A stretch of DNA of 40,814 nucleotides from an uncultured Methanosarcinales archaeon (lineage in GTDB: Archaea; Nanobdellota; Nanobdellia; Woesearchaeales; JAGLXL01): the NCBI GenBank assembly GCA_964472345.1, contig CAYYLB010000003.1:1-40814 (forward strand), written 5' to 3'. The translations under genes and the position numbers were made by a program. The notes beneath the pieces were generated by a model that was not told the origin of the DNA, did not search any database, and worked only from the letters and a program-made list of their open reading frames with translations. Of the stretch, positions 2,949 through 27,629 are shown in pieces. Position 1 is the first letter of the stretch. Every line of letters begins with the position of its first letter.

Positions 2949-3075
2949 GGCGAGGTAGTTTAGCCTGGCGGAACGCCGCTCTCATAACCAGGTGGGTCAG
3001 GCGGATGTCGTGGGTTCAAATCTCTTCAGCTCCGCTGAACGGGACTGAATGGGAGTGAGAGTCCCGCCCTCGCCA
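2949..3075 (+). tRNA. tRNA-Met(CAT), probably elongator, with two introns (37/38 at 2987-2998; 59/60 at 3021-3061)
   Basis: Acceptor GGCGAGG/CCTCGCC+A, D stem GTTT/GAAC, anticodon stem CCGCT/GGCGG, T stem GTGGG/CCCGC; both inserts form BHB-like motifs (CTCA/TGGG and TTCA/TGAG helices with 3-nt bulges). Confidence 0.88.
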
Positions 3076-3794
3076 TTTTTCCGCTGCAGCAGCGCAAGGC
3101 ATTTCTCGGCAAGCTGGTGCAGGTTGACGGCGTCTTCCTCATTGTACTGCACCAGGAGCTCAAGGTATTCCTTATCACCCGAAGCAAGAAACGCTTTCCA
3201 CGCATCGGCCGCCGAGCCGCGCAGGTGCGCCGGCCGCGCGATGCCGAGCTGCCGCTCGATATCCTTCAGGCCGCCGCGAAGGCCAAGGCGCTCACACAGG
3301 GGCTTCAGGTCAAAATGGGGGATCGCGAGCCTCTTGCCGAGGAACTTCTCAAGCTTCGGGATGTCGAACGCGCTGCCGTTGTAGGTGACGAGCAGCTTGC
3401 AGCGCTGCAATTCCTGCTGCACCGCAGACTGTTCGAGCTGCATCCCCCTGACGAGCGTTGCGCTCCGGAACCGGTCGGAGAGCGTGAGCACGATGATGCT
3501 TCCGTCCGTGCCGACTTCAAGATCAAGGAAGCACGCATGCTCCCTGAATGAGAGATAGAGCCTCCACATCTCGCGCTGCAGCAGCCGCTGGGCGAAGAAC
3601 GCAAGGTCATGCTGCGCGAGCGCGCGCTCCGCGAGCTGCAGCTGACGGTTGTAGAAGAGCTTGCGCTTCGGCGAGACGCCGGCGATGGCCGCGGTGCGTA
3701 AAAAATCGTCCCACGTACGGACGCCGAGCGCTGCGAGGCGCTCTTCTGTCTTGGTGCCAACGCCTGCAAGGAATGTGAAGCAGCGGTCAAGCAT
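2997..3794 (-). CDS. YprB-like RNase H-fold (DEDD) exonuclease with N-terminal helix-hairpin-helix
   Basis: FLAGVG HhH, FLDLE, TYNGSAFD and YNEED motifs. Confidence 0.85.
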   Translation of the reverse strand: MLDRCFTFLAGVGTKTEERLAALGVRTWDDFLRTAAIAGVSPKRKLFYNRQLQLAERALAQHDLAFFAQRLLQREMWRLYLSFREHACFLDLEVGTDGSIIVLTLSDRFRSATLVRGMQLEQSAVQQELQRCKLLVTYNGSAFDIPKLEKFLGKRLAIPHFDLKPLCERLGLRGGLKDIERQLGIARPAHLRGSAADAWKAFLASGDKEYLELLVQYNEEDAVNLHQLAEKCLALLQRKNGEGGTLTPIQSRSAELKRFEPTTSA

Positions 3795-3868
3795 GGTGCG
3801 GGAAGCGGCGGTGAGAGTACGGGGAAACAAAACTGATGTGATGTCTCTTACAAGCGAGGCCCAGCGGT

Positions 3869-4123
3869 TCAAGCGCCATCATTCGTTTTCGTGAGCTTCT
3901 CCTTCAGCTCCCTGTTGATCTCGATGAGCCGCTTCGCGTGCCGGCCCATCTCCTGGCGCTTCCCTGCCTGCGTGAGCGCGCTCTTGAGCAGCAGCGCGTT
4001 CTGGGCGCGCAGCTCATCGATCATCTTTTCCTTCTCGCGCAGCAGCCCCTCGTACTGGCGGCGGACGCGCCTGAGCTCAGCGACTGAAACCCTGTTTCCC
4101 AGCAGCCATTGCAGGACTGGCAT
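3869..4123 (-). CDS. Small coiled-coil hypothetical protein
   Basis: 84-aa helical ORF; TATA-like element near 4163-4170. Confidence 0.6.
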   Translation of the reverse strand: MPVLQWLLGNRVSVAELRRVRRQYEGLLREKEKMIDELRAQNALLLKSALTQAGKRQEMGRHAKRLIEINRELKEKLTKTNDGA

Positions 4124-4301: not shown

Positions 4302-4871
4302 TCATCCGCTTCTTTTTTCCTCGAGATATCTGTAGATCGGCTGCTGCTCTTTCATCGAGAGCTCGCGGTTCGCGAAGCGCGCCATCACATACAGCAGATC
4401 CGAAAGCCGGTTCACATACTTCAGCACTTCCGGGTTTGTCTCCATCGTTTCCGCAAAGCGCACCAGCACGCGCTCCGCCCTGCGGCATACCGTCCGCGCG
4501 AAATGCAGGAAAACGCTCGCGCGCGTGCCGTTGGGGAGGATGAAAGCGGTCTGCTCGCTCAGCGGCAGGGAGATCTCATCAATCGCGTCCTCGAGCGCCT
4601 TGACATGGGCTGCAATCGTCTTGGGCATGGCTTTCCTGCCGCGGAAGGTCAGCGAGGCGAGCTCTGCCCCAACGGTGAAGAGGTCATTCTGCACCTGCAG
4701 CAGCAGCCTGCGGAGCCTTTCCTCCTCGACGAAGGAAAGCGCGACGCCGAGCACGGCGTTCAGCTCATCGAGCGTCCCGTAGACCTCGATGCGGAGGTCG
4801 CTCTTCCGGACGCGCTCTCCGCCATAGAAGCTCGTCTCGCCGCTGTCGCCGGTCTTGGTGTAGATCTTCAC
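4302..4871 (-). CDS. pduO: ATP:cob(I)alamin adenosyltransferase, PduO type
   Basis: KIYTKTGDSGET, YGTLDELN, ARTVCRRAER and NRLSDLLY motifs; GTG start 11 nt after the nrdJ stop. Confidence 0.93.
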   Translation of the reverse strand: MKIYTKTGDSGETSFYGGERVRKSDLRIEVYGTLDELNAVLGVALSFVEEERLRRLLLQVQNDLFTVGAELASLTFRGRKAMPKTIAAHVKALEDAIDEISLPLSEQTAFILPNGTRASVFLHFARTVCRRAERVLVRFAETMETNPEVLKYVNRLSDLLYVMARFANRELSMKEQQPIYRYLEEKRSG

Positions 4872-4882
4872 CGCGCTGCACC

Positions 4883-7800
4883 CTAGCTGCACCCGCCGGT
4901 TGAGCCGCAGGCATCGCAGATGGTGCAGACGCCGTTGCGCCGCACGAGCTTCGCGCCGCAGCTGCCGCAGGGTTCGTCGCCCATGTAGCCGGCACTTTTC
5001 ACGTCGCCGATCTGGTCGGCGTGATCGGCGGCGCTGCCTTCATTCGGGCCGCCATTGAGCTGCGCGAGAAGCGGCTGCTCGAGCACATCAGGAGGCTGCT
5101 GGGCGGGTTGCGGGGCAGGCTGCTCGGCGAGGGCGGGCTCTTCCGCCGCCGCGCCTGCTTCCGCCTCTTCCTGCTCGAGGATGCGCTTCAGCTCGGGGTG
5201 CTCCTCAAATGTGGTGTTCAGCGGCTGGGAGAGCTTGCTACCGTCGCGGTATAATGCGACCGCCTTGCTCATGTGCTGCCAGGCGAAAGAGTACGCGGCC
5301 TTGATTTCCTCGACGGTCGATTCGCGGGGCATGTTGATTGTCTTGCTGATGGCGCCCGAGATGAACGGCTGCACCGCAGTGACCATCTTCAGGTGCCCAT
5401 AAGGGTCAATGAAGCGCCGGCCGTTCGGGCCGCACTTGCTGGCGCAATCGAACACCGGCAGATGCTCCTCCTTCAGGAATGGCGCGCCCTCGACGGCCAT
5501 CATGCCGCAGACGTATGCGTTTGCCTGCGCAATCTCCTCCCCGGAGAAGCCGAGCGCCCCGAGCATGTCAAAGCCCGGATCATTGAGCTGCTCTTCAGAG
5601 AACCCAAGGTGCCTGCAGAATTCCGTGCCGAGCACCCACTGCGTGAACGCGTATCGCAGCTCGGACACATGCGGCAGCTGCTTTTCGAGCGCTGCGAGCT
5701 GCTCATCGCCGAAGCCCCTCGCGCGGAGCGCTTCGTTGCTGACGGCAAGGGAGCTGTGCAGCGCCCCGTGGCCGACGCAGTAGTCGACGATGGCCGTGAT
5801 CTGCTGTTCATCATAGCCGAGCCGCTTCAACGCCTTGGGCACGGACTGGTTGACAATCTTGAAATAGCCGCCGCCGGCGAGCTTCTTGAACTTCACCAGC
5901 GCGTAATCCGGCTCAACGCCCGTCGTGTCGCAGTCCATGACGAGGCCTATCGTCCCGGTGGGAGCGATCACCGTCACCTGTGCATTGCGGTAGCCGTGCT
6001 GCTCGCCCCAGGCAAGCGCCTTGTCCCACGCCTCCTGCGCGGCACGGAGCAGCGCCGGCGGGCAGAGCTGCTGGTCGATCGCATCCGGCGTTGCGCTGAG
6101 CATCTCATACTCATGCTGGCCGTACGCCGCGCGGCGATGGTTGCGGATCACCCGCAGCATGTGCTTCTTATTGCGCGCAAAGCCAGGGAATGGCCCGAGC
6201 GCGCGTGCGAGCTCCGCGCTGGTCGCATACGACTCGCCGCACATGATGGCAGTCAGCGCTCCGGCGATTGCGCGGCCGAGATCGCTGTCATACGGGATTC
6301 CGGTGCGCATCAGCACGCTCCCGACATTCGCATAGCCCAGCCCGAGAGTCCGGAACTCATAGCTCCTGAGCGCGACCTGCCTGCTCGGGAAATGCGCCAT
6401 GAGGACGGAAATCTCGAGAATGATCGTCCACAGGCGGATCGCGTGCTTATATCCATCGATGTCGAAGGCGCCGACGTCATCGTGGTACAGCGCGCCAAGG
6501 TTGATGCTTGCCAGGTTGCAGGCGGTGTCATCGAGGAACATATATTCGCTGCAGGGGTTGCTCGCATTGATGCGCCCGTCTTCGGGGCAGGTGTGCCATT
6601 CGTTGATGGTGGTGTCATACTGCACGCCCGGATCGGCGCTTGCCCATGCGCAGTAGCCGATGTCTTCCCAGAGCTTTTTGGCGGGAACGAGCTTCATGAC
6701 CTCTCCGCCCGTGCGGGCTTTCAGCGCCCAGAGCTCATCTTTGGCAAGCGCATCGAAAAACGCGTTCGGGATGCGGACGCTGTTGTTGCTGTTCTGCCCG
6801 CTGACCGTCAGGTACGCTTCGCGGTTGTAGTCCGTGTCAAACAGCTCAAGCTGCATCGAGCGCCCTTCCTGCGCGAGATCCATGGTGCGCACGAGATAGT
6901 TCAACGGGACACTGTCGCGAGCCGCTTCGCGCACCGCCTGCGCAAGGGCCTTGTTCTGCAGCAGGTCAGCGCCGTGCTGCGCGAGCTGCGTGATGCGGCC
7001 GAGATGCTGCTTCAGCACCGCGCTCCCGGTCACGAGCGAAGCGACTTTCTCCTCTTCGCGCACTTTCCACCAGATGAATGTCTCAATCTCAGGATGGTCA
7101 AGGTCGAGGCAGACCATCTTTGCCGCGCGCCGCGTGGTCCCGCCGGACTTGATGGAGCCTGCGGCGCGGTCAAACACCTTCAGAAAGGACATCAATCCGG
7201 AGCTCATGCCGCCGCCGGAGAGCTTTTCGCCTGCAGCACGCAGAGCTGAAAAGTTCGTTCCCGTGCCGCTGCCATACTTGAAGATGCGCGCCTCACGCGT
7301 CAGCAGGTCAAAGATGCCGCCTTCGTTCACGAGATCATCATTGAGCGCCTGGATGAAGCACGCATGGACCTGGCCGTGGGTGTACGCATCCTCTGACTGC
7401 TTCAGCTGCCTCGTTTCGGGATCAACGTAGTAATGCCCCTGCGCAGGGCCCTTGATGCCGTAGGCCCACGCCAGGCCGGTGTTGAACCACTGCGGCGAAT
7501 TCGGGGCAGCAGTCTGCGTGAGGAGCATCGAAACAACCTCATCATAGAATGCCTGCGCATCTGCCGGCGACGCAAAGTAGCCGTGCTTCTCTCCCCAGAA
7601 GCGCCAGCAGCCTGCAAGGCGGTGCACGACCTGCTTGACGCTCCTCTCCGGCCCGTAGATGGTATTGCCGCCTGCATCGCGGTAAGGGATGCCTGCCTTG
7701 CGGAAGTATTTCTGCGCGAGGATGTCCGTCGCGACCTGGGACCATGATGAGGGAACCTCGACGTCGTGCATCTCGAACACGACGCTTCCGTCGGGATTGC

Positions 7801-7927
7801 GGATGATGGAGGAGCGCTTGTCGTACGTGACGCTCAGATAGGGATCCTCTCCCTGCCGGGTGAAATGGCGCGGAATGCGCAGGCCGCGCTGGCTTCCTGA
7901 TGCCCCTGAACCGTGCATTGCTTCCAT
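4883..7927 (-). CDS. nrdJ: Class II (AdoCbl-dependent) ribonucleotide reductase, catalytically intact, no ATP cone
   Basis: APNSPQWFN, HAC(190)F, loop 2 KSGGTTRRAA, NPC(459)SE, C(470)NLAS, IAPTGT, SKTIN; C-terminal CxxC...CxxC...CS tail; GGAGGTG ribosome-binding site. Confidence 0.95.
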   Translation of the reverse strand: MEAMHGSGASGSQRGLRIPRHFTRQGEDPYLSVTYDKRSSIIRNPDGSVVFEMHDVEVPSSWSQVATDILAQKYFRKAGIPYRDAGGNTIYGPERSVKQVVHRLAGCWRFWGEKHGYFASPADAQAFYDEVVSMLLTQTAAPNSPQWFNTGLAWAYGIKGPAQGHYYVDPETRQLKQSEDAYTHGQVHACFIQALNDDLVNEGGIFDLLTREARIFKYGSGTGTNFSALRAAGEKLSGGGMSSGLMSFLKVFDRAAGSIKSGGTTRRAAKMVCLDLDHPEIETFIWWKVREEEKVASLVTGSAVLKQHLGRITQLAQHGADLLQNKALAQAVREAARDSVPLNYLVRTMDLAQEGRSMQLELFDTDYNREAYLTVSGQNSNNSVRIPNAFFDALAKDELWALKARTGGEVMKLVPAKKLWEDIGYCAWASADPGVQYDTTINEWHTCPEDGRINASNPCSEYMFLDDTACNLASINLGALYHDDVGAFDIDGYKHAIRLWTIILEISVLMAHFPSRQVALRSYEFRTLGLGYANVGSVLMRTGIPYDSDLGRAIAGALTAIMCGESYATSAELARALGPFPGFARNKKHMLRVIRNHRRAAYGQHEYEMLSATPDAIDQQLCPPALLRAAQEAWDKALAWGEQHGYRNAQVTVIAPTGTIGLVMDCDTTGVEPDYALVKFKKLAGGGYFKIVNQSVPKALKRLGYDEQQITAIVDYCVGHGALHSSLAVSNEALRARGFGDEQLAALEKQLPHVSELRYAFTQWVLGTEFCRHLGFSEEQLNDPGFDMLGALGFSGEEIAQANAYVCGMMAVEGAPFLKEEHLPVFDCASKCGPNGRRFIDPYGHLKMVTAVQPFISGAISKTINMPRESTVEEIKAAYSFAWQHMSKAVALYRDGSKLSQPLNTTFEEHPELKRILEQEEAEAGAAAEEPALAEQPAPQPAQQPPDVLEQPLLAQLNGGPNEGSAADHADQIGDVKSAGYMGDEPCGSCGAKLVRRNGVCTICDACGSTGGCS

Positions 7928-9973
7928 CTATGGCACCTCCCGTGAAACCCGCTTGCGCGATCGTTTCACACCATCCAGACGCGAGTGGATCAGCTGATCG
8001 GTGCTGCCCTCGCGGTAACTATGAACGCTCTTGCAGCCGAGCGCGTACGCCGCGGTGTAGAGCTCCTCGACCTCGCGGATCGTCGCGTGCGCCGGCAGGT
8101 TGATTGTCTTGCTGACGGCATTGTCCGTATGTTTCTGGAATGCCGCCTGCATGGCAAGGTGCTGGCCGACGCTGCAGTCATGCGCCGTGACGAAGAGCGG
8201 GCGCCACCGCTCAGGAATCTCCTTGATCTGCTGGATGCTGCCGGCGAGTGCGATGCTCTTCATGAGCGCCTCCGAATAGAAGCCTTCGCGCCGCGCGACC
8301 TGCTCGAACAGCGGGATGACCTCGAACGTCTCTGCGGTCGGCGTGCGCTTCACCGAGCTGATCGCAAAGTAGGGCTCGATGCCCTGGCTGCAGCCCGCGA
8401 TGATGCTCGCCGCGGCAGCCGCCATGATCGTCGTGCGGCTCGCGTTGCGCACTTTCTCGTTCCTCTTCGCCGAAGCGCTCTGCCGGTATGCGGCAAACGT
8501 GCCCCGCTGCTTCGCAAGCGCGCCGCTCGCTTCCCGCGCCTCGGTGCTGATGAACCTCATGAGCTTTTCGGCAAGCTTCAGCGCCTCGGGGCCCGTATAC
8601 GGGACGCCGAGCATGATGAGCGCGTCCGCCCAGCCGATGACGCCGATGCCGGCGCGCCGCGTGCGCTCCATGGATTCCTTGAATGTGCCGTTGGGGTAGG
8701 CACACAGGTCAATCGCGTTGTCGAGCATCCGGAGCGCGCTCCCCACCGCCGGCGCAAGGCGCGCCCAGTCGAACTCAGGTGCTGCGACGAAATGCGCCAC
8801 GTTGATGCTCGCGGTGAAGCAGCCCTCATACGGAAGCAGTGGGTGCTCGCCGGTGGGGATGGTCGCTTCGATCTGCAGGTCATCAAACGGGTTTGTCGGC
8901 GCCTTGTTCAGCTGGTCGAGGAAGACGACGGCGGGGTCGCCGGTGCGCCAGGAGATGGTCGCAATCATGTCGAGGACACTGCGCGCGCGCAGCTCCGTCA
9001 CCGCAGACTGCGTGTGGGGATCGATCAGCTTGTAGGTGCGGTCCTCCTCTGCCGCGCGCAGGAATTCCTTCGTGAGCAAAACGGCGGCGCCGAAGCTCTT
9101 CAGGCCGTAGCTCTCTTTTGCGGTGATGAAATCGATGATATCGGGGTGGTGCACGTTCAGGAACGCAAGGTTGCTGCTGTTCGGGTTGACCTGGTGCAGC
9201 GCACGGTCGTAGAGGCGCAGGAATGCGACGGGGCCGCAGGCGCGCACTCCCCGGCTGACGCTGCTTCCTTTCGGGCGGATGGGGGAAAACGAGATGCCAA
9301 GCCCAAAGCCGCGCTCCTGGTTCTTGTGCAATAATGCTGCCTGCGTCAGCGTCCCGAACAGGCTCGCGATGTCATCCTCGAGCGGCAGGACGTAGCCGTC
9401 GCTCAGCTGCTGCTGCCTCGTGCCTGCAGAGCGGAGGATGCTCAGGCTCGGCACGACATCCCGGTTCACCAGCAGGGTGAGAAGCCCCTCTTCCGCCGCG
9501 CGCGGATCGCCTCCGTAGGGCTTCTCGGCGCGCGCCAGCGCCCTGGCGACGCGCTCAAACATCTCGCGGGGCGTCTCGCGCGAGCCGTCTTCCTTCACCT
9601 GCAGCAGGCCGTACCTCCCGAGGATGCTCAGCGCGTCAAACGACAGCTTCAGGTCATCCACGATGCCCAGCGCGGACTTTGCCTCGCGCACAGCCTGCCG
9701 CTTCTGCCGGTAGAGGATGAATGCTCTCGCAGTCTGGCTGTGCCCCGCCTTGATCAGCACTTTCTCAAGCGTGTCCTGCACATCCTCGACCGTCGGGATC
9801 TTTTTGGTCCCGTATTCCTCGTCAAGGAGCTCCGCGACCTGCTGGGCAAGGATCGCTGCCTGCCCCTCATCGGTCCCCCCGACGGCCTGCGCCGCCCTCC
9901 ATATTGCGCTGCGGATCTTCTGCAGGTCGAAATCGACAACCCGCCCGTCCCGCTTCTCGAGTTTCTTGACCAT
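7928..9973 (-). CDS. ATP-cone-containing class II RNR paralogue lacking catalytic residues (pseudoenzyme)
   Basis: N-terminal ATP cone (KRDG...FD..KI...VEDVQD...AFILYR) and full RNR-like barrel, but SAC is SDG, NPCGE is IPTGE, APTGT is MAAAA, loop 2 is shortened and there is no C-terminal Cys tail; ORF uninterrupted. Confidence 0.85.
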   Translation of the reverse strand: MVKKLEKRDGRVVDFDLQKIRSAIWRAAQAVGGTDEGQAAILAQQVAELLDEEYGTKKIPTVEDVQDTLEKVLIKAGHSQTARAFILYRQKRQAVREAKSALGIVDDLKLSFDALSILGRYGLLQVKEDGSRETPREMFERVARALARAEKPYGGDPRAAEEGLLTLLVNRDVVPSLSILRSAGTRQQQLSDGYVLPLEDDIASLFGTLTQAALLHKNQERGFGLGISFSPIRPKGSSVSRGVRACGPVAFLRLYDRALHQVNPNSSNLAFLNVHHPDIIDFITAKESYGLKSFGAAVLLTKEFLRAAEEDRTYKLIDPHTQSAVTELRARSVLDMIATISWRTGDPAVVFLDQLNKAPTNPFDDLQIEATIPTGEHPLLPYEGCFTASINVAHFVAAPEFDWARLAPAVGSALRMLDNAIDLCAYPNGTFKESMERTRRAGIGVIGWADALIMLGVPYTGPEALKLAEKLMRFISTEAREASGALAKQRGTFAAYRQSASAKRNEKVRNASRTTIMAAAAASIIAGCSQGIEPYFAISSVKRTPTAETFEVIPLFEQVARREGFYSEALMKSIALAGSIQQIKEIPERWRPLFVTAHDCSVGQHLAMQAAFQKHTDNAVSKTINLPAHATIREVEELYTAAYALGCKSVHSYREGSTDQLIHSRLDGVKRSRKRVSREVP

Positions 9974-9974
9974 G

Positions 9975-10415
9975 TCAGTTTTTCAGCAGCGCGAGCTCCT
10001 CCTCGAACAGCTTGGGATCGGTAAATGCCTTGCAGACGCTCGCAAAGCGCAGATAGGCGACATGGTCGAGCCTGCGGAGCTCTTTCATCACCGTCTCGCC
10101 GATCACGGTGCTGGGGACTTCTGCCTTGCGGAGGCGGTAGAGCTTCCGCTCGACTTTCTCGGTGAGCTGCTCGAGCTGCTCCTGCGTGATGGGCAGCTTG
10201 TTGCACGCCTTGAGAAGGCCGCTGAGGATCTTCCCGCGCTGGAAGGGCTCCCTGCGGCCGTCTTTTTTCATGACGACAAGCTCCAGGGAGGCGATCTCGC
10301 GGGTCGTGAAGCGCTTCGCGCACTTTTCGCACTCGCGGCGGCGGCGCACCTCCTGCTCGGTCACACGGCTGTCAACCACCCGCGTATCAGCAAATGAGCA
10401 GAATGGGCAGCGCAT
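9975..10415 (-). CDS. nrdR: Transcriptional repressor NrdR
   Basis: MRCPFC...VVDSR...RRRREC..C..RFTT zinc ribbon, ATP cone KKDGRREPF, LDHVAYLRFASV; GGTGA ribosome-binding site. Confidence 0.95.
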   Translation of the reverse strand: MRCPFCSFADTRVVDSRVTEQEVRRRRECEKCAKRFTTREIASLELVVMKKDGRREPFQRGKILSGLLKACNKLPITQEQLEQLTEKVERKLYRLRKAEVPSTVIGETVMKELRRLDHVAYLRFASVCKAFTDPKLFEEELALLKN

Positions 10416-10580
10416 GTCAGTCACCCGGCGTGCGGCAGCTCAGCGGCGTCCATTGGGGAAGAGAGCTCCGTCAGCGCAGCCGCCTGCATCATGAAGCCGC
10501 GCTTCAGCCGCGCGCGCACCAGCCCCTGCCTGCCGTCGAGTTGCACGTTCCCCTCACAGATAGACACGATTCACTGATAA

Positions 10581-10596
10581 CCACAACATATTGTGT
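10581..10596. promoter_or_regulatory. NrdR box 1
   Basis: ccaCaAcATaTtGtgt matches the consensus acaCwAtATaTwGtgt. Confidence 0.8.
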
Positions 10597-10612
10597 TATT
10601 ACTCATAAATTA

Positions 10613-10628
10613 CCACAACCTCTAGTAG
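10613..10628. promoter_or_regulatory. NrdR box 2
   Basis: ccaCaAccTcTaGtag, a weaker match, starting 32 bp from box 1 (typical tandem spacing). Confidence 0.65.
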
Positions 10629-13293: not shown

Positions 13294-14661
13294 TTACTCC
13301 ACTCTGGCGCACGCCCGCTGCACGACCTCGGAAAGCGCGGGATGGACATGCACCGTGCGCGCGACATCGTCCACCGTCAGCCCGGCGCGCATCGCCACAA
13401 CGGCCTCGTGGATGAGCGTGCTCGCGTCAGTGCCGATGATGTGGCAGCCAAGGATCTTCCGCGTCTTTCGGTCGGCATACACCCGGACAAACCCATCATG
13501 GTCTTCCAGCGCCGCCCCCATGCCAGTGTCAATGGTTTGGTACTGGCCAATCGCGTACGAAGCCTTTCTGGCATCGAGCTGCTGCTGCGTCTCTCCCACA
13601 CCGGCAATCTGCGGCGAGGTGAAAATCGCGTGCGGCATCGCCGTATAATCGACTGCGGCTTTCCTGCGGCGCAATGCGTTCTGCACGACGTACTGAGCCT
13701 CGAGGTTGGCGCTGTGCTTGAAGAGGAACCTGCCCGCAATGTCGCCCAGCGCCCAGACGTTCTTTGCGCTTGTCTCCAGGTACTCGTTCGTCTTCACAAA
13801 GCCGTGCTCGTTTACGGCAATGCCTGCTTCCTGCACCGCAAGGACGTCCGTGTTCGGCACCAGGCCCGTGGCGACCAGCAGCTGGTCGGAAACGAGGGTT
13901 CTCTGGCGCCCCCGCCCGGCGCTTGGCGCGATGCTCGTGAGGATGGCATTCCCTTTCTTCCTCACCGAGAGCGCATGGTGGCCGAGGAACGTGCGGAAGC
14001 GCTTCTGCGCGATCCGGGTGAATGCGGCAGCGACGCGCCGGTCCTCATTGGGGATCAGCAGCGGCGCGTTCTGGATGATGCTCACCTCGGTCCCCAGGGC
14101 GCCGAAGAAATGCCCCAGCTCCGCGCCGATGTAGCCGCCGCCGATGATGGTCAGCTTCCTGGGCTGCCTGCGGAGCCGCAGCGCCTCCTTGCTCGTGAGG
14201 AAGGGAACGCGCTCAAGCCCCTCGACCTTGGGGATGCGGGGCCTCGTTCCCGCGGCGATGATGACTTTCTCTCCCCGGATCACTTTCTTCCCCACCTGGA
14301 GGGTGCGCTCGCCGACAAAGCGGGTGCGCGCCCTGAAGAGCGTGCTGTTCGGGTCGCTGCGGATGCCGCGCTCGATGCTCGCCGCGTCCGCATCGACGAT
14401 TCTGTCAACGCGCTCCACCATCCTGCGGAAGCCGATCCGCACGGCGCGGGGATGGATCCCGAACAGCGGCGCGCGCTTCAGCAGCTCCATGACATCCGCG
14501 CTGTGGATCAGCATCTTGCTCGGGATGCAGCCGCGGTTCAGGCAGGTGCCGCCCAGGGGCCCTTCCTCGACAATGGCGACCTTCAGCCCCATCCCTGCCG
14601 CTGCAGCCGAGACCGTCAGGCCGGAACCGGCGCCGATGACGATGATGTCGAAGGTTTCCAT
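13294..14661 (-). CDS. Class I pyridine nucleotide-disulfide oxidoreductase (dihydrolipoyl dehydrogenase/mycothione reductase-like)
   Basis: GAGSG, redox motif GGTCLNRGCIPSK, GGGYIG, ALGD, HPALSE. Confidence 0.9.
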   Translation of the reverse strand: METFDIIVIGAGSGLTVSAAAAGMGLKVAIVEEGPLGGTCLNRGCIPSKMLIHSADVMELLKRAPLFGIHPRAVRIGFRRMVERVDRIVDADAASIERGIRSDPNSTLFRARTRFVGERTLQVGKKVIRGEKVIIAAGTRPRIPKVEGLERVPFLTSKEALRLRRQPRKLTIIGGGYIGAELGHFFGALGTEVSIIQNAPLLIPNEDRRVAAAFTRIAQKRFRTFLGHHALSVRKKGNAILTSIAPSAGRGRQRTLVSDQLLVATGLVPNTDVLAVQEAGIAVNEHGFVKTNEYLETSAKNVWALGDIAGRFLFKHSANLEAQYVVQNALRRRKAAVDYTAMPHAIFTSPQIAGVGETQQQLDARKASYAIGQYQTIDTGMGAALEDHDGFVRVYADRKTRKILGCHIIGTDASTLIHEAVVAMRAGLTVDDVARTVHVHPALSEVVQRACARVE

Positions 14662-27546: not shown

Positions 27547-27629
27547 GGGCCTGTGGTCTAACGGTATGACACCACATTGGCAAGCATCCAGACTTGTGGA
27601 GACTCCGGGTTCGATTCCCGGCGGGTCCA
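27547..27629 (+). tRNA. tRNA-Ala(GGC) with an 11-nt intron at 37/38 (27583-27593)
   Basis: Acceptor GGGCCTG/CGGGTCC with G3:U70, anticodon stem CCACA/TGTGG, T arm CCGGG-TTCGATT-CCCGG, central helix TTGG/CCAG; TATA at 27515-27522. Confidence 0.93.

Follow-up and report, generated by a model that had tools for sequence, protein, structure and literature searches.

The window analyzed here is a stretch of 40,814 nucleotides (positions 1 to 40,814 of contig CAYYLB010000003.1, assembly GCA_964472345.1), deposited as an uncultured Methanosarcinales archaeon and placed by GTDB in the Woesearchaeales. Four genes of ribonucleotide reductase (RNR) metabolism lie head to tail on its minus strand in the order nrdR, a class II RNR gene that has lost catalytic residues, an intact class II RNR gene, and pduO, with gaps of 1 nt and 0 nt and finally a short overlap. 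NrdR (9975..10424) carries the Pfam domains Zn_ribbon_NrdR and ATP-cone and matches TIGR00244 with 157.7 bits (cut-off 124.65); its true start is likely the ATG at 10415. The second gene (7928..9973) encodes a 681-aa ATP-cone NrdJ paralog, which we call the dead protein. The third (4883..7927) encodes a long NrdJ of 1014 aa with a zinc-finger Cys tail and no ATP cone (NF005736, 1520 bits; NF005122, 1002 bits), which we call the live enzyme. The last, pduO (4302..4892), encodes a PduO-type cob(I)alamin adenosyltransferase (Pfam Cob_adeno_trans, 199 bits; TIGR00636); its start is uncertain, and the Pfam match begins at aa 10.

The dead and live genes are joined without a gap. The live-gene ATG (7925-7927) abuts the dead-gene TAG (7928-7930), and a GGAGGTG Shine-Dalgarno-like site for the live gene (7934..7940) falls within the last codons of the dead gene. 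Both open reading frames (ORFs), with the stop codon abutting the live ATG, lie where the initial annotation of this DNA, made from the sequence without database searches, had put them.

Lost and retained parts of the dead protein

Pfam finds the ATP-cone, RNR all-alpha and RNR barrel domains in the dead protein (barrel 296 bits). Its AlphaFold2 model is confident except in the tail, aa 659-681 (predicted local distance difference test score 89, predicted template modelling score 0.85), and has the ten-stranded alpha/beta barrel with a finger loop. The best structural match in Foldseek is the NrdJ of Thermotoga maritima (template modelling scores 0.75/0.81), a dimeric ATP-cone class II RNR (PDB 1xje/3o0o) of the same fold and the same domain order of cone, all-alpha domain and barrel.

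The active site is another matter. The Cys, Asn and Glu residues considered here have established roles in RNR catalysis, and their states were read from an alignment to T. maritima NrdJ (1xje; Tm numbering). The first redox Cys, Tm C134, is replaced by G193 (codon 9395..9397) as LSACF becomes LSDGY. The finger-loop motif NPCGE reads IPTGE (aa 372-376, 8846..8860), so that Tm N320/C322/E324 correspond to I372/T374/E376 and only the Glu of this trio is retained. Loop 2 is four residues shorter, with KQGSRRRGALM reduced to NPNSSN-L (NPNSSN, aa 263-268, 9170..9187). The phosphate-binding APTG motif is gone (IAPTGS reads IMAAAA), PNSP reads PSLS, and the C-terminal Cys pair is absent. The alignment reproduced every active-site substitution listed in the initial annotation, and the codon positions given there for T374 (8852-8854) and G193 (9395-9397) are arithmetically right. 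One correction is needed: the second redox Cys, Tm C333, is retained as residue 385 (C385), and the Asn that follows it has become F386. As judged from these residues, the dead protein is predicted to be incapable of acting as a reductase by the known mechanism.

The regions outside the active site tell a different story. The cone (aa 6-93, 9695..9958), also detected in a genome scan, scores 73.2 bits with PF03477 against a cut-off of 25.8, covers profile positions 4-87 of 88, and can be aligned over its whole length with the cones of 5olk, 8p23 and 5im3, 5olk being the most similar of the solved structures (E 2e-12). Its KRDG start, VE.VQD helix and YR..R end, regarded as nucleotide-contact motifs in characterized cones, are all present. 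The positions conserved in the cones of canonical relatives (K7, R8, F15, K19, E63, Q66, D67, E70, I86-R89 and R92) are retained. Most of loop 1 also survives (G222, G224, G226, S228-S230, R233). No stretch of the dead protein is better conserved than helices A and B, which score 0.79 and 0.83 against a protein mean of 0.72; two RNR studies describe these helices as dimer interface and effector site (PMC4390871, PMC9669993). The kept parts appear to be those needed for sensing and pairing, and the lost parts those that serve only the protein's own catalysis.

Conservation and origin of the dead clade

The window's protein is not a solitary oddity. A search of 5.8 billion proteins with the 681-aa sequence returned 21 further clusters at 97-50% identity, then a gap, with canonical ATP-cone relatives at no more than 48% (44-48%). 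The same substitutions and the loop 2 deletion occur in 22/22 clade proteins, the window's included. In an alignment of 34 rows (22 from the clade, 11 canonical and one other unusual protein, P0051), the loop 2 deletion was seen in all 22 clade members and in 0/12 of the other sequences. The relatives bear Woesearchaeota or Nanoarchaeia names, in keeping with the expectation of homologs in DPANN archaea.

For residue counts, the 22 clade members were compared with 94 relatives, a set that leaves out P0051 and the intein-bearing rows of more than 800 aa. The thiyl position is Thr in 20 and Ser in 2 clade members, versus Cys in 94/94 relatives. At the first redox Cys position the clade has Gly (11), Ala (6) or Ser (5), versus Cys in 93/94, and at the active-site Asn position it has Thr (14), Ile (3), Ser (3), Ala (1) or Val (1), versus Asn in 93/94. 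Such a recurrence goes far beyond what chance would give. The Glu (E376) is kept in 20/22 and the second Cys (C385) in 18/22. APTG is replaced by variable residues across the clade, and KGxT on the last strand has become KSxH in every member. Canonical relatives end in GGCxxCxL, whereas the tail of the dead proteins is K/R-rich and Cys-free in 22/22; this disordered segment (aa 659-681 in the window's protein) stays K/R-rich even in this high-GC genome, where CGN and AAG codons encode it.

Set against canonical ATP-cone NrdJs, to which it is 44-48% identical, the dead protein differs by the replacement or deletion of its thiyl Cys and first redox Cys, the active-site Asn, APTG and PNSP, the C-terminal Cys pair and part of loop 2. 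Among the 200 columns conserved at 95% or more in the relatives, 117 are kept and 54 changed in the dead clade, and every cone column conserved in the 94 relatives is among those kept. The clade has also acquired conservation of its own: 41 clade-specific positions are newly conserved (at least 90%), many of them in former active-site elements. The frozen clade-specific elements comprise the finger loop TPTGE, CFTAS, INPxGTN, CSQGIEP and the KSxH of the last strand.

In the tree, the clade has support of 100/100, and its stem measures 0.52 substitutions per site. It branches within the canonical ATP-cone NrdJs of its archaeal family, as sister (71/95) to a group with the canonical NrdJs of two genomes of that family. 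Catalysis appears to have been lost a single time, in the common ancestor of a few genera. The clade is small, since clustering of 15 billion proteins at 50% leaves a single representative for all of it.

Selection was estimated as dN/dS by the Nei-Gojobori method, which is readable only in unsaturated pairs. In two such pairs the dead gene gave 0.064 (dS 0.62) and 0.077 (dS 0.12), and the live gene gave 0.060 and 0.121 in the same pairs. Further values were 0.20-0.24 at dS near 1, and the changes in one pair were too few to count. None of the full-length dead copies retrieved (17 coding sequence (CDS) rows) has an interrupted ORF. The conserved clade, the dN/dS of 0.06-0.08 and the 41 newly conserved positions together argue that the dead NrdJ is a selected pseudoenzyme and not a decaying copy. 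This is what the initial annotation had proposed; the picture it associated with decay, homologs keeping NPC and SAC together with dN/dS near 1, is the opposite of what we found. The operon or parts of it were found in groundwater, soil and hot-spring DNA data sets, and the stretch itself is present in several independent groundwater data sets. No RNA data set was listed as holding the operon.

The live enzyme and the operon

The live enzyme consists of Ribonuc_red_2_N and the barrel, with no cone in Pfam. Its catalytic set of C190, N457/C459/E461, C470/N471 and a CxxC...CxxC tail is invariant among 66 long NrdJs, which bears out the reading of this protein as a catalytically complete, cone-less NrdJ. 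Long cone-less NrdJs with 57-68% identity to the live enzyme are widespread in bacteria and in related archaea alike, so that a recent bacterial origin of the live gene is unsupported. The dead and live barrels share 22-28% identity, and this value, the domain and family profiles and the tree agree with the earlier view of two different NrdJ subtypes and no recent duplication. LAGLIDADG inteins interrupt the live NrdJ at the NPC site in five loci (L009, L085, L086, L088, L089), and that of L089 has a second intein near the first redox Cys; no intein was seen in any dead gene of the fetched loci.

The window's genome is 1.26 Mb, with a completeness estimate of 100%. A genome scan found ATP cones in NrdR and the dead protein only, no class III RNR was found in the genome, and the live NrdJ is its only canonical RNR. 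A third RNR-like gene lies on another contig (G000 contig C1:24666-26177; L002:1132-3024, plus strand) and encodes a cone-less protein of 630 aa with a zinc-finger tail. In the window's genome Tyr replaces its first redox Cys, NPCGE has become SPCGE, and loop 2 has changed. The same paralog is fully canonical in genome G151, has CPTGE in G116, and has SPTGE with the second Cys lost in G154; orthologs also occur in loci L186, L188 and L190, and the gene was seen only in genomes with the dead-live pair. Its degeneration is lineage-specific and non-uniform, with the ORF intact. Because the only cones are those of NrdR and the dead protein, and because this third gene is degenerate, the genome's sole catalytic RNR has no cone in cis.

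We collected 19 dead-clade loci from genomes and metagenomes, which came to about 11 distinct sequences besides the window once near-duplicates were removed. As expected from the window, the dead gene is followed directly by a long cone-less NrdJ in all 16 loci with downstream DNA, and pduO comes next in all 11 loci that reach that far. In most loci nrdR is directly upstream of the dead gene (L009 has no upstream DNA). In every junction present, GGAGGTG precedes the live ATG by a short distance, 3-10 nt in the junctions listed. It is coding, as 'EV', in most loci and intergenic in L007, L009, L088 and L089. Adjacency, co-occurrence within the family and the shared ribosome-binding site are constant co-occurrence and co-expression signals of the kind expected for a pseudo-subunit.

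Three further signals were considered and set aside. The C-terminal 'KxEV' of the dead protein might be taken for a docking peptide; its codons are the GGAGGTG ribosome-binding site, which is intergenic where the ORF ends earlier. A read-through fusion of the two proteins, suggested by the in-frame ATG that abuts the dead-gene stop in the window, was rejected, as spacing and frame vary among loci (0, 1, 3, 5 and more nt). Finally, dead and live pairwise identities correlate with r = 0.97 over 45 pairs, which was not counted as evidence of co-evolution because both genes track the species tree.

The distribution of the pair points to its origin. In a sample of 151 genomes of the order, a clade-level match was found only in the window's genome and one other of its family, the next best match having 45% identity. 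In a sample of nine genomes of the family, five have the dead gene and the same five have the long NrdJ. The other four have neither, only an NrdJ of 43-47% identity. Three of those four NrdJs were checked (the fourth genome, G155, is flagged as unpublished and partial) and are fully canonical, with the cone and the C-terminal Cys pair; in two of the three genomes nrdR is directly upstream. As canonical sister NrdJs carry the cone and two of them follow nrdR, the ancestral state was nrdR followed by an ATP-cone nrdJ. The dead copy is thus the resident archaeal ATP-cone NrdJ of an NrdR-controlled operon, with catalysis lost where a long NrdJ and pduO lie downstream.

The region in front of the operon is consistent with such control. 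About 180 nt upstream of nrdR lies an NrdR-box-like palindrome, ACACAATATGTTGTGG (10581..10596, minus strand), with 2 mismatches to the bacterial NrdR-box consensus. No other site of this kind occurs in the window, where 0.18 would be expected by chance. A distal site 32 bp further upstream (10613..10628, minus strand) has 6 mismatches and is weak alone. The two flank a TATA-like ATTTAT (10605-10610), and we infer that the distal box and the TATA-like element mark the promoter region. Most related loci likewise have NrdR-box-like sites in front of nrdR, in several cases two of them spaced by 32 bp, and the spacing in the window matches the box pairs of L081, L085 and L090. The window thus has nrdR together with tandem NrdR boxes at a putative promoter, as in an NrdR regulon, the distal box being weak.

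Some 150 G+C-rich nucleotides separate the boxes from the nrdR start (10425-10580, minus strand); they may be a long leader, and they contain a 23-codon ORF that ends at the nrdR start. Neighboring genes in the window include a pyridine-nucleotide disulphide oxidoreductase (13294-14661, minus strand) and an RNase_H_2 superfamily protein (2997-3872, minus strand), with no operon link seen. Rfam places a tRNA of 83 nt at 27547-27629 (plus strand, 55.9 bits) that is absent from the ARAGORN output and may have an intron or unusual structure.

A proposed regulatory role, its rivals and its precedents

We tentatively favor, as the most likely role of the dead protein, that of a nucleotide-sensing regulatory pseudo-subunit of the live NrdJ. 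The grounds are that the parts for sensing and pairing are kept, that the catalytic parts are lost, and that the sole catalytic RNR has no cone in cis. The clade-wide purifying selection, the constant linkage of the two genes and their joint occurrence within the family also speak for it. The dead protein would be made together with the live NrdJ and would bind it, either as an alpha/alpha' heterodimer through helices A and B or in a higher oligomer. Its cone, with no other RNR-linked cone in the cell, would respond to the ratio of ATP to dATP by turning the live enzyme on or off, and the retained loop 1 of the dead protein may still bind deoxynucleotide (dNTP) effectors. The catalytic subunit, which has no overall activity control in cis, would in this way receive it in trans. 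Quite possibly, the class II RNR of these archaea is a two-paralog machine, in which a cone-less catalytic NrdJ is switched by a dead, cone-bearing NrdJ paralog that serves as an allosteric alpha' subunit.

By analogy, two unlike NrdJ barrels can work in one assembly, since natural tandem two-barrel NrdJ fusions exist. Two such proteins, P0244 (1600 aa) and P0245 (1351 aa), have two barrels and a Cys-rich tail and are not members of the dead clade. Both halves keep the catalytic Cys, Asn and Glu, and in the second half CGGALI stands for PNSP and loop 2 differs. Each resembles a hetero-pair of NrdJ paralogs joined covalently.

Several observations weigh against a regulatory pseudo-subunit. If the live enzyme had come to depend on its neighbor, complementary degeneration might be expected; it was sought and not found, with 6 of 389 conserved columns changed. 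In that comparison with other long NrdJs, the live enzymes were those at least 70% identical to the window's enzyme, and their adjacency to a dead gene was checked only where locus DNA allowed. Loops 1 and 2 and the dimer helices of the live enzyme are intact. Given these features and the lack of complementary loss, the live enzyme should function as a normal homodimer, as is presumably the case for its relatives at 57-68% identity in other archaea and bacteria, and the absence of complementary loss speaks against an obligate structural partnership. With only 22-28% identity between them, the two barrels need not fit together at the canonical interface. Adjacent genes are by themselves a weak argument for binding, and no dead-live fusion was found in a whole-library profile search or among longer proteins (13 matches, all at no more than 49% identity). 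In L087-L089, which form one sublineage, nrdR is not directly upstream, so that the four-gene synteny proposed by the initial annotation holds in its dead-live and pduO parts and not throughout for nrdR. Finally, the former active site is remodeled and frozen (F223, N263-P264, T374, F386, S649, H651 and others), which could mean a new ligand site just as well as a plugged cavity.

That last point leads to a rival explanation, in which the dead protein is neofunctionalized and its remodeled cavity binds a ligand, with no need for a stable complex with the live enzyme. The ligand might be adenosylcobalamin, stored or handed from PduO to NrdJ, or a nucleotide that is buffered or sensed. The 41 clade-specific positions, many in former active-site elements, and the presence of pduO in 11/11 loci reaching its position are consistent with this, as is Thr or Ser at the thiyl position in all 22 members, with Thr also in the third paralogs of G116 and G154, which suggests a preferred residue over random replacement. 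However, pduO also follows NrdJ pairs elsewhere and may merely serve the live enzyme, the substrate-phosphate motifs APTG and PNSP are gone along with loop 2, and bulky hydrophobic replacements (F223, F386, L259) are the usual filling of an unused cavity. We regard this alternative as unlikely. We give similarly little weight to the idea that the dead protein is a partner of NrdR, with cone-cone pairing tuning repression of the operon and the basic, disordered tail perhaps aiding DNA contact. The premise is that cone-cone contacts drive NrdR oligomers, and NrdR is reported to act through nucleotide-dependent oligomers (PMC9110341). The genome has no ATP cones besides those of NrdR and the dead protein, nrdR is adjacent upstream in most loci with NrdR boxes in front, and the tail is disordered and K/R-rich in all members despite the high-GC genome. 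Yet the dead-live pair persists in L087, L088 and L089 without nrdR directly upstream, and a 580-aa barrel with conserved loop 1 and helices A and B far exceeds what a cone donor needs. The adjacency of nrdR is ancestral and not specific to the dead form, as nrdR stands beside a canonical NrdJ in sister genera, and the conservation of the tail is in part that of the ribosome-binding site of the next gene.

Still less probable is a retained scaffold that moonlights outside dNTP supply and owes its place in the operon to history. Dead homologs of the RNR large subunit have unrelated roles in some herpesviruses, and here the third RNR-like paralog has likewise kept its ORF intact despite losses of catalytic residues that differ among genomes. 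Such a role sits poorly with the strict adjacency and shared ribosome-binding arrangement with the live NrdJ in all loci, with the perfect co-occurrence of dead gene and long NrdJ within the family, and with the conservation of the nucleotide-sensing parts. A decaying pseudogene or an assembly artifact without function is very improbable. Redundancy once a second NrdJ was present could have permitted decay, and the third paralog does degenerate non-uniformly in the same genomes. Against this stand intact ORFs in 17 CDS rows, dN/dS of 0.06-0.08, identical substitutions in 22 clusters down to 50% identity, a confident predicted fold, and the recovery of the stretch from several independent groundwater data sets. 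The clade-wide substitutions, the low dN/dS and the well-supported single clade refute neutral decay.

Known systems offer partial parallels to a regulatory pseudo-subunit. Within RNRs, the nearest precedent is yeast Rnr4, a non-catalytic small-subunit paralog that pairs with Rnr2: like the dead NrdJ, it is an RNR paralog that has lost its chemistry and is kept as a partner. Rnr4 is, however, a eukaryotic class I beta subunit with no nucleotide sensor, whereas the protein described here is an alpha-type class II barrel with a cone, and its partnership is a proposal. Leeuwenhoekiella blandensis NrdB (PDB 5olk) resembles the present case in carrying the cone on a chain other than that of the active site, with control through oligomerization. 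There the carrier is the active radical-generating subunit, and here it would be a dead copy of the catalytic subunit. NrdR itself, in the same operon, is a non-enzymatic ATP-cone protein for dNTP homeostasis, but it is a 150-aa DNA binder of zinc ribbon and cone, while the dead NrdJ has no zinc ribbon and a 580-aa RNR body.

Outside RNRs, the prozyme of trypanosome S-adenosylmethionine decarboxylase is reported to be a dead paralog that regulates its active counterpart by heteromer formation (PMC5201418). Fold and pathway differ, and the active enzyme described there depends on its partner, whereas the live NrdJ looks self-sufficient. Pseudomonas aeruginosa NrdJa and NrdJb are reported to form a split class II RNR encoded by two adjacent genes (PMC4520616, PMC5704485). 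This is one enzyme cut into a catalytic part and a Cys-rich tail, in contrast to two complete barrels, one of them dead. None of these nearest precedents is a dead catalytic-subunit paralog carrying the sensor. A full-text literature search, with subscription journals and RNRdb outside its scope, returned no description of a dead NrdJ paralog.

Other NrdJs of the order are also unusual. Cone-bearing, tail-less, degenerate NrdJs occur beside cone-less, Cys-tailed NrdJs in other families of the order. One clade has TDPCGD for TNPCGE, with Asn changed to Asp and Glu to Asp, the thiyl Cys kept and loop 2 altered; its members bear a cone and have no tail (loci L204-L209 and L211-L213; genomes G067, G332, G393, G294, G242, G177, G167, G077 and G045). 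Both redox Cys are lost in 8 of these 9 genomes, and G077 keeps the first without the second. In at least two genomes (G067, G393) the gene lies beside a cone-less NrdJ with a zinc-finger tail. This TDPCGD clade is independent of the dead clade and could be another pseudo-subunit or a different chemistry. The cone-bearing P0051 (724 aa) has Ile at the first redox Cys, SPCGE for NPCGE, Val at the second Cys, and no Cys tail. In G094 (L200, G094:C2) a milder pair occurs in an operon of nrdR, cone-less NrdJ, cone-bearing tail-less NrdJ and pduO, and three-NrdJ arrays of cone-bearing, cone-less and cone-bearing genes occur in L197 (G148:C1) and L198 (G020:C60). A dead-subunit solution may have arisen more than once in the order, as the TDPCGD clade, the P0051 type and the G094 pair would illustrate. 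Together, the degenerate clades, arrays and fusions raise the prior for heteromeric NrdJ assemblies.

To our knowledge, the ATP cone behind overall activity control of RNRs has until now been located either on the enzyme or on the subunit that generates its radical. In the operon described here, nature offers a case where the one cone linked to an RNR belongs instead to a dead copy of the catalytic subunit, long maintained by selection. Most class II RNRs are reported to have no ATP cone (PMC4390871). A regulatory role for the dead protein would make this the first case of RNR activity controlled in trans by a catalytic-subunit copy that is itself dead, and a clean prokaryotic example of a displaced enzyme recycled into a regulator. 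The sensor and the catalyst would then be a separable pair for the study of cone-driven allostery, and the system is directly testable with two recombinant proteins. Whatever the function of the dead protein, proteins annotated as NrdJ in small-genome archaea include non-catalytic ones, which matters for metabolic reconstructions. If the dead protein does regulate the live enzyme, these archaea would have a new way of controlling their dNTP supply.

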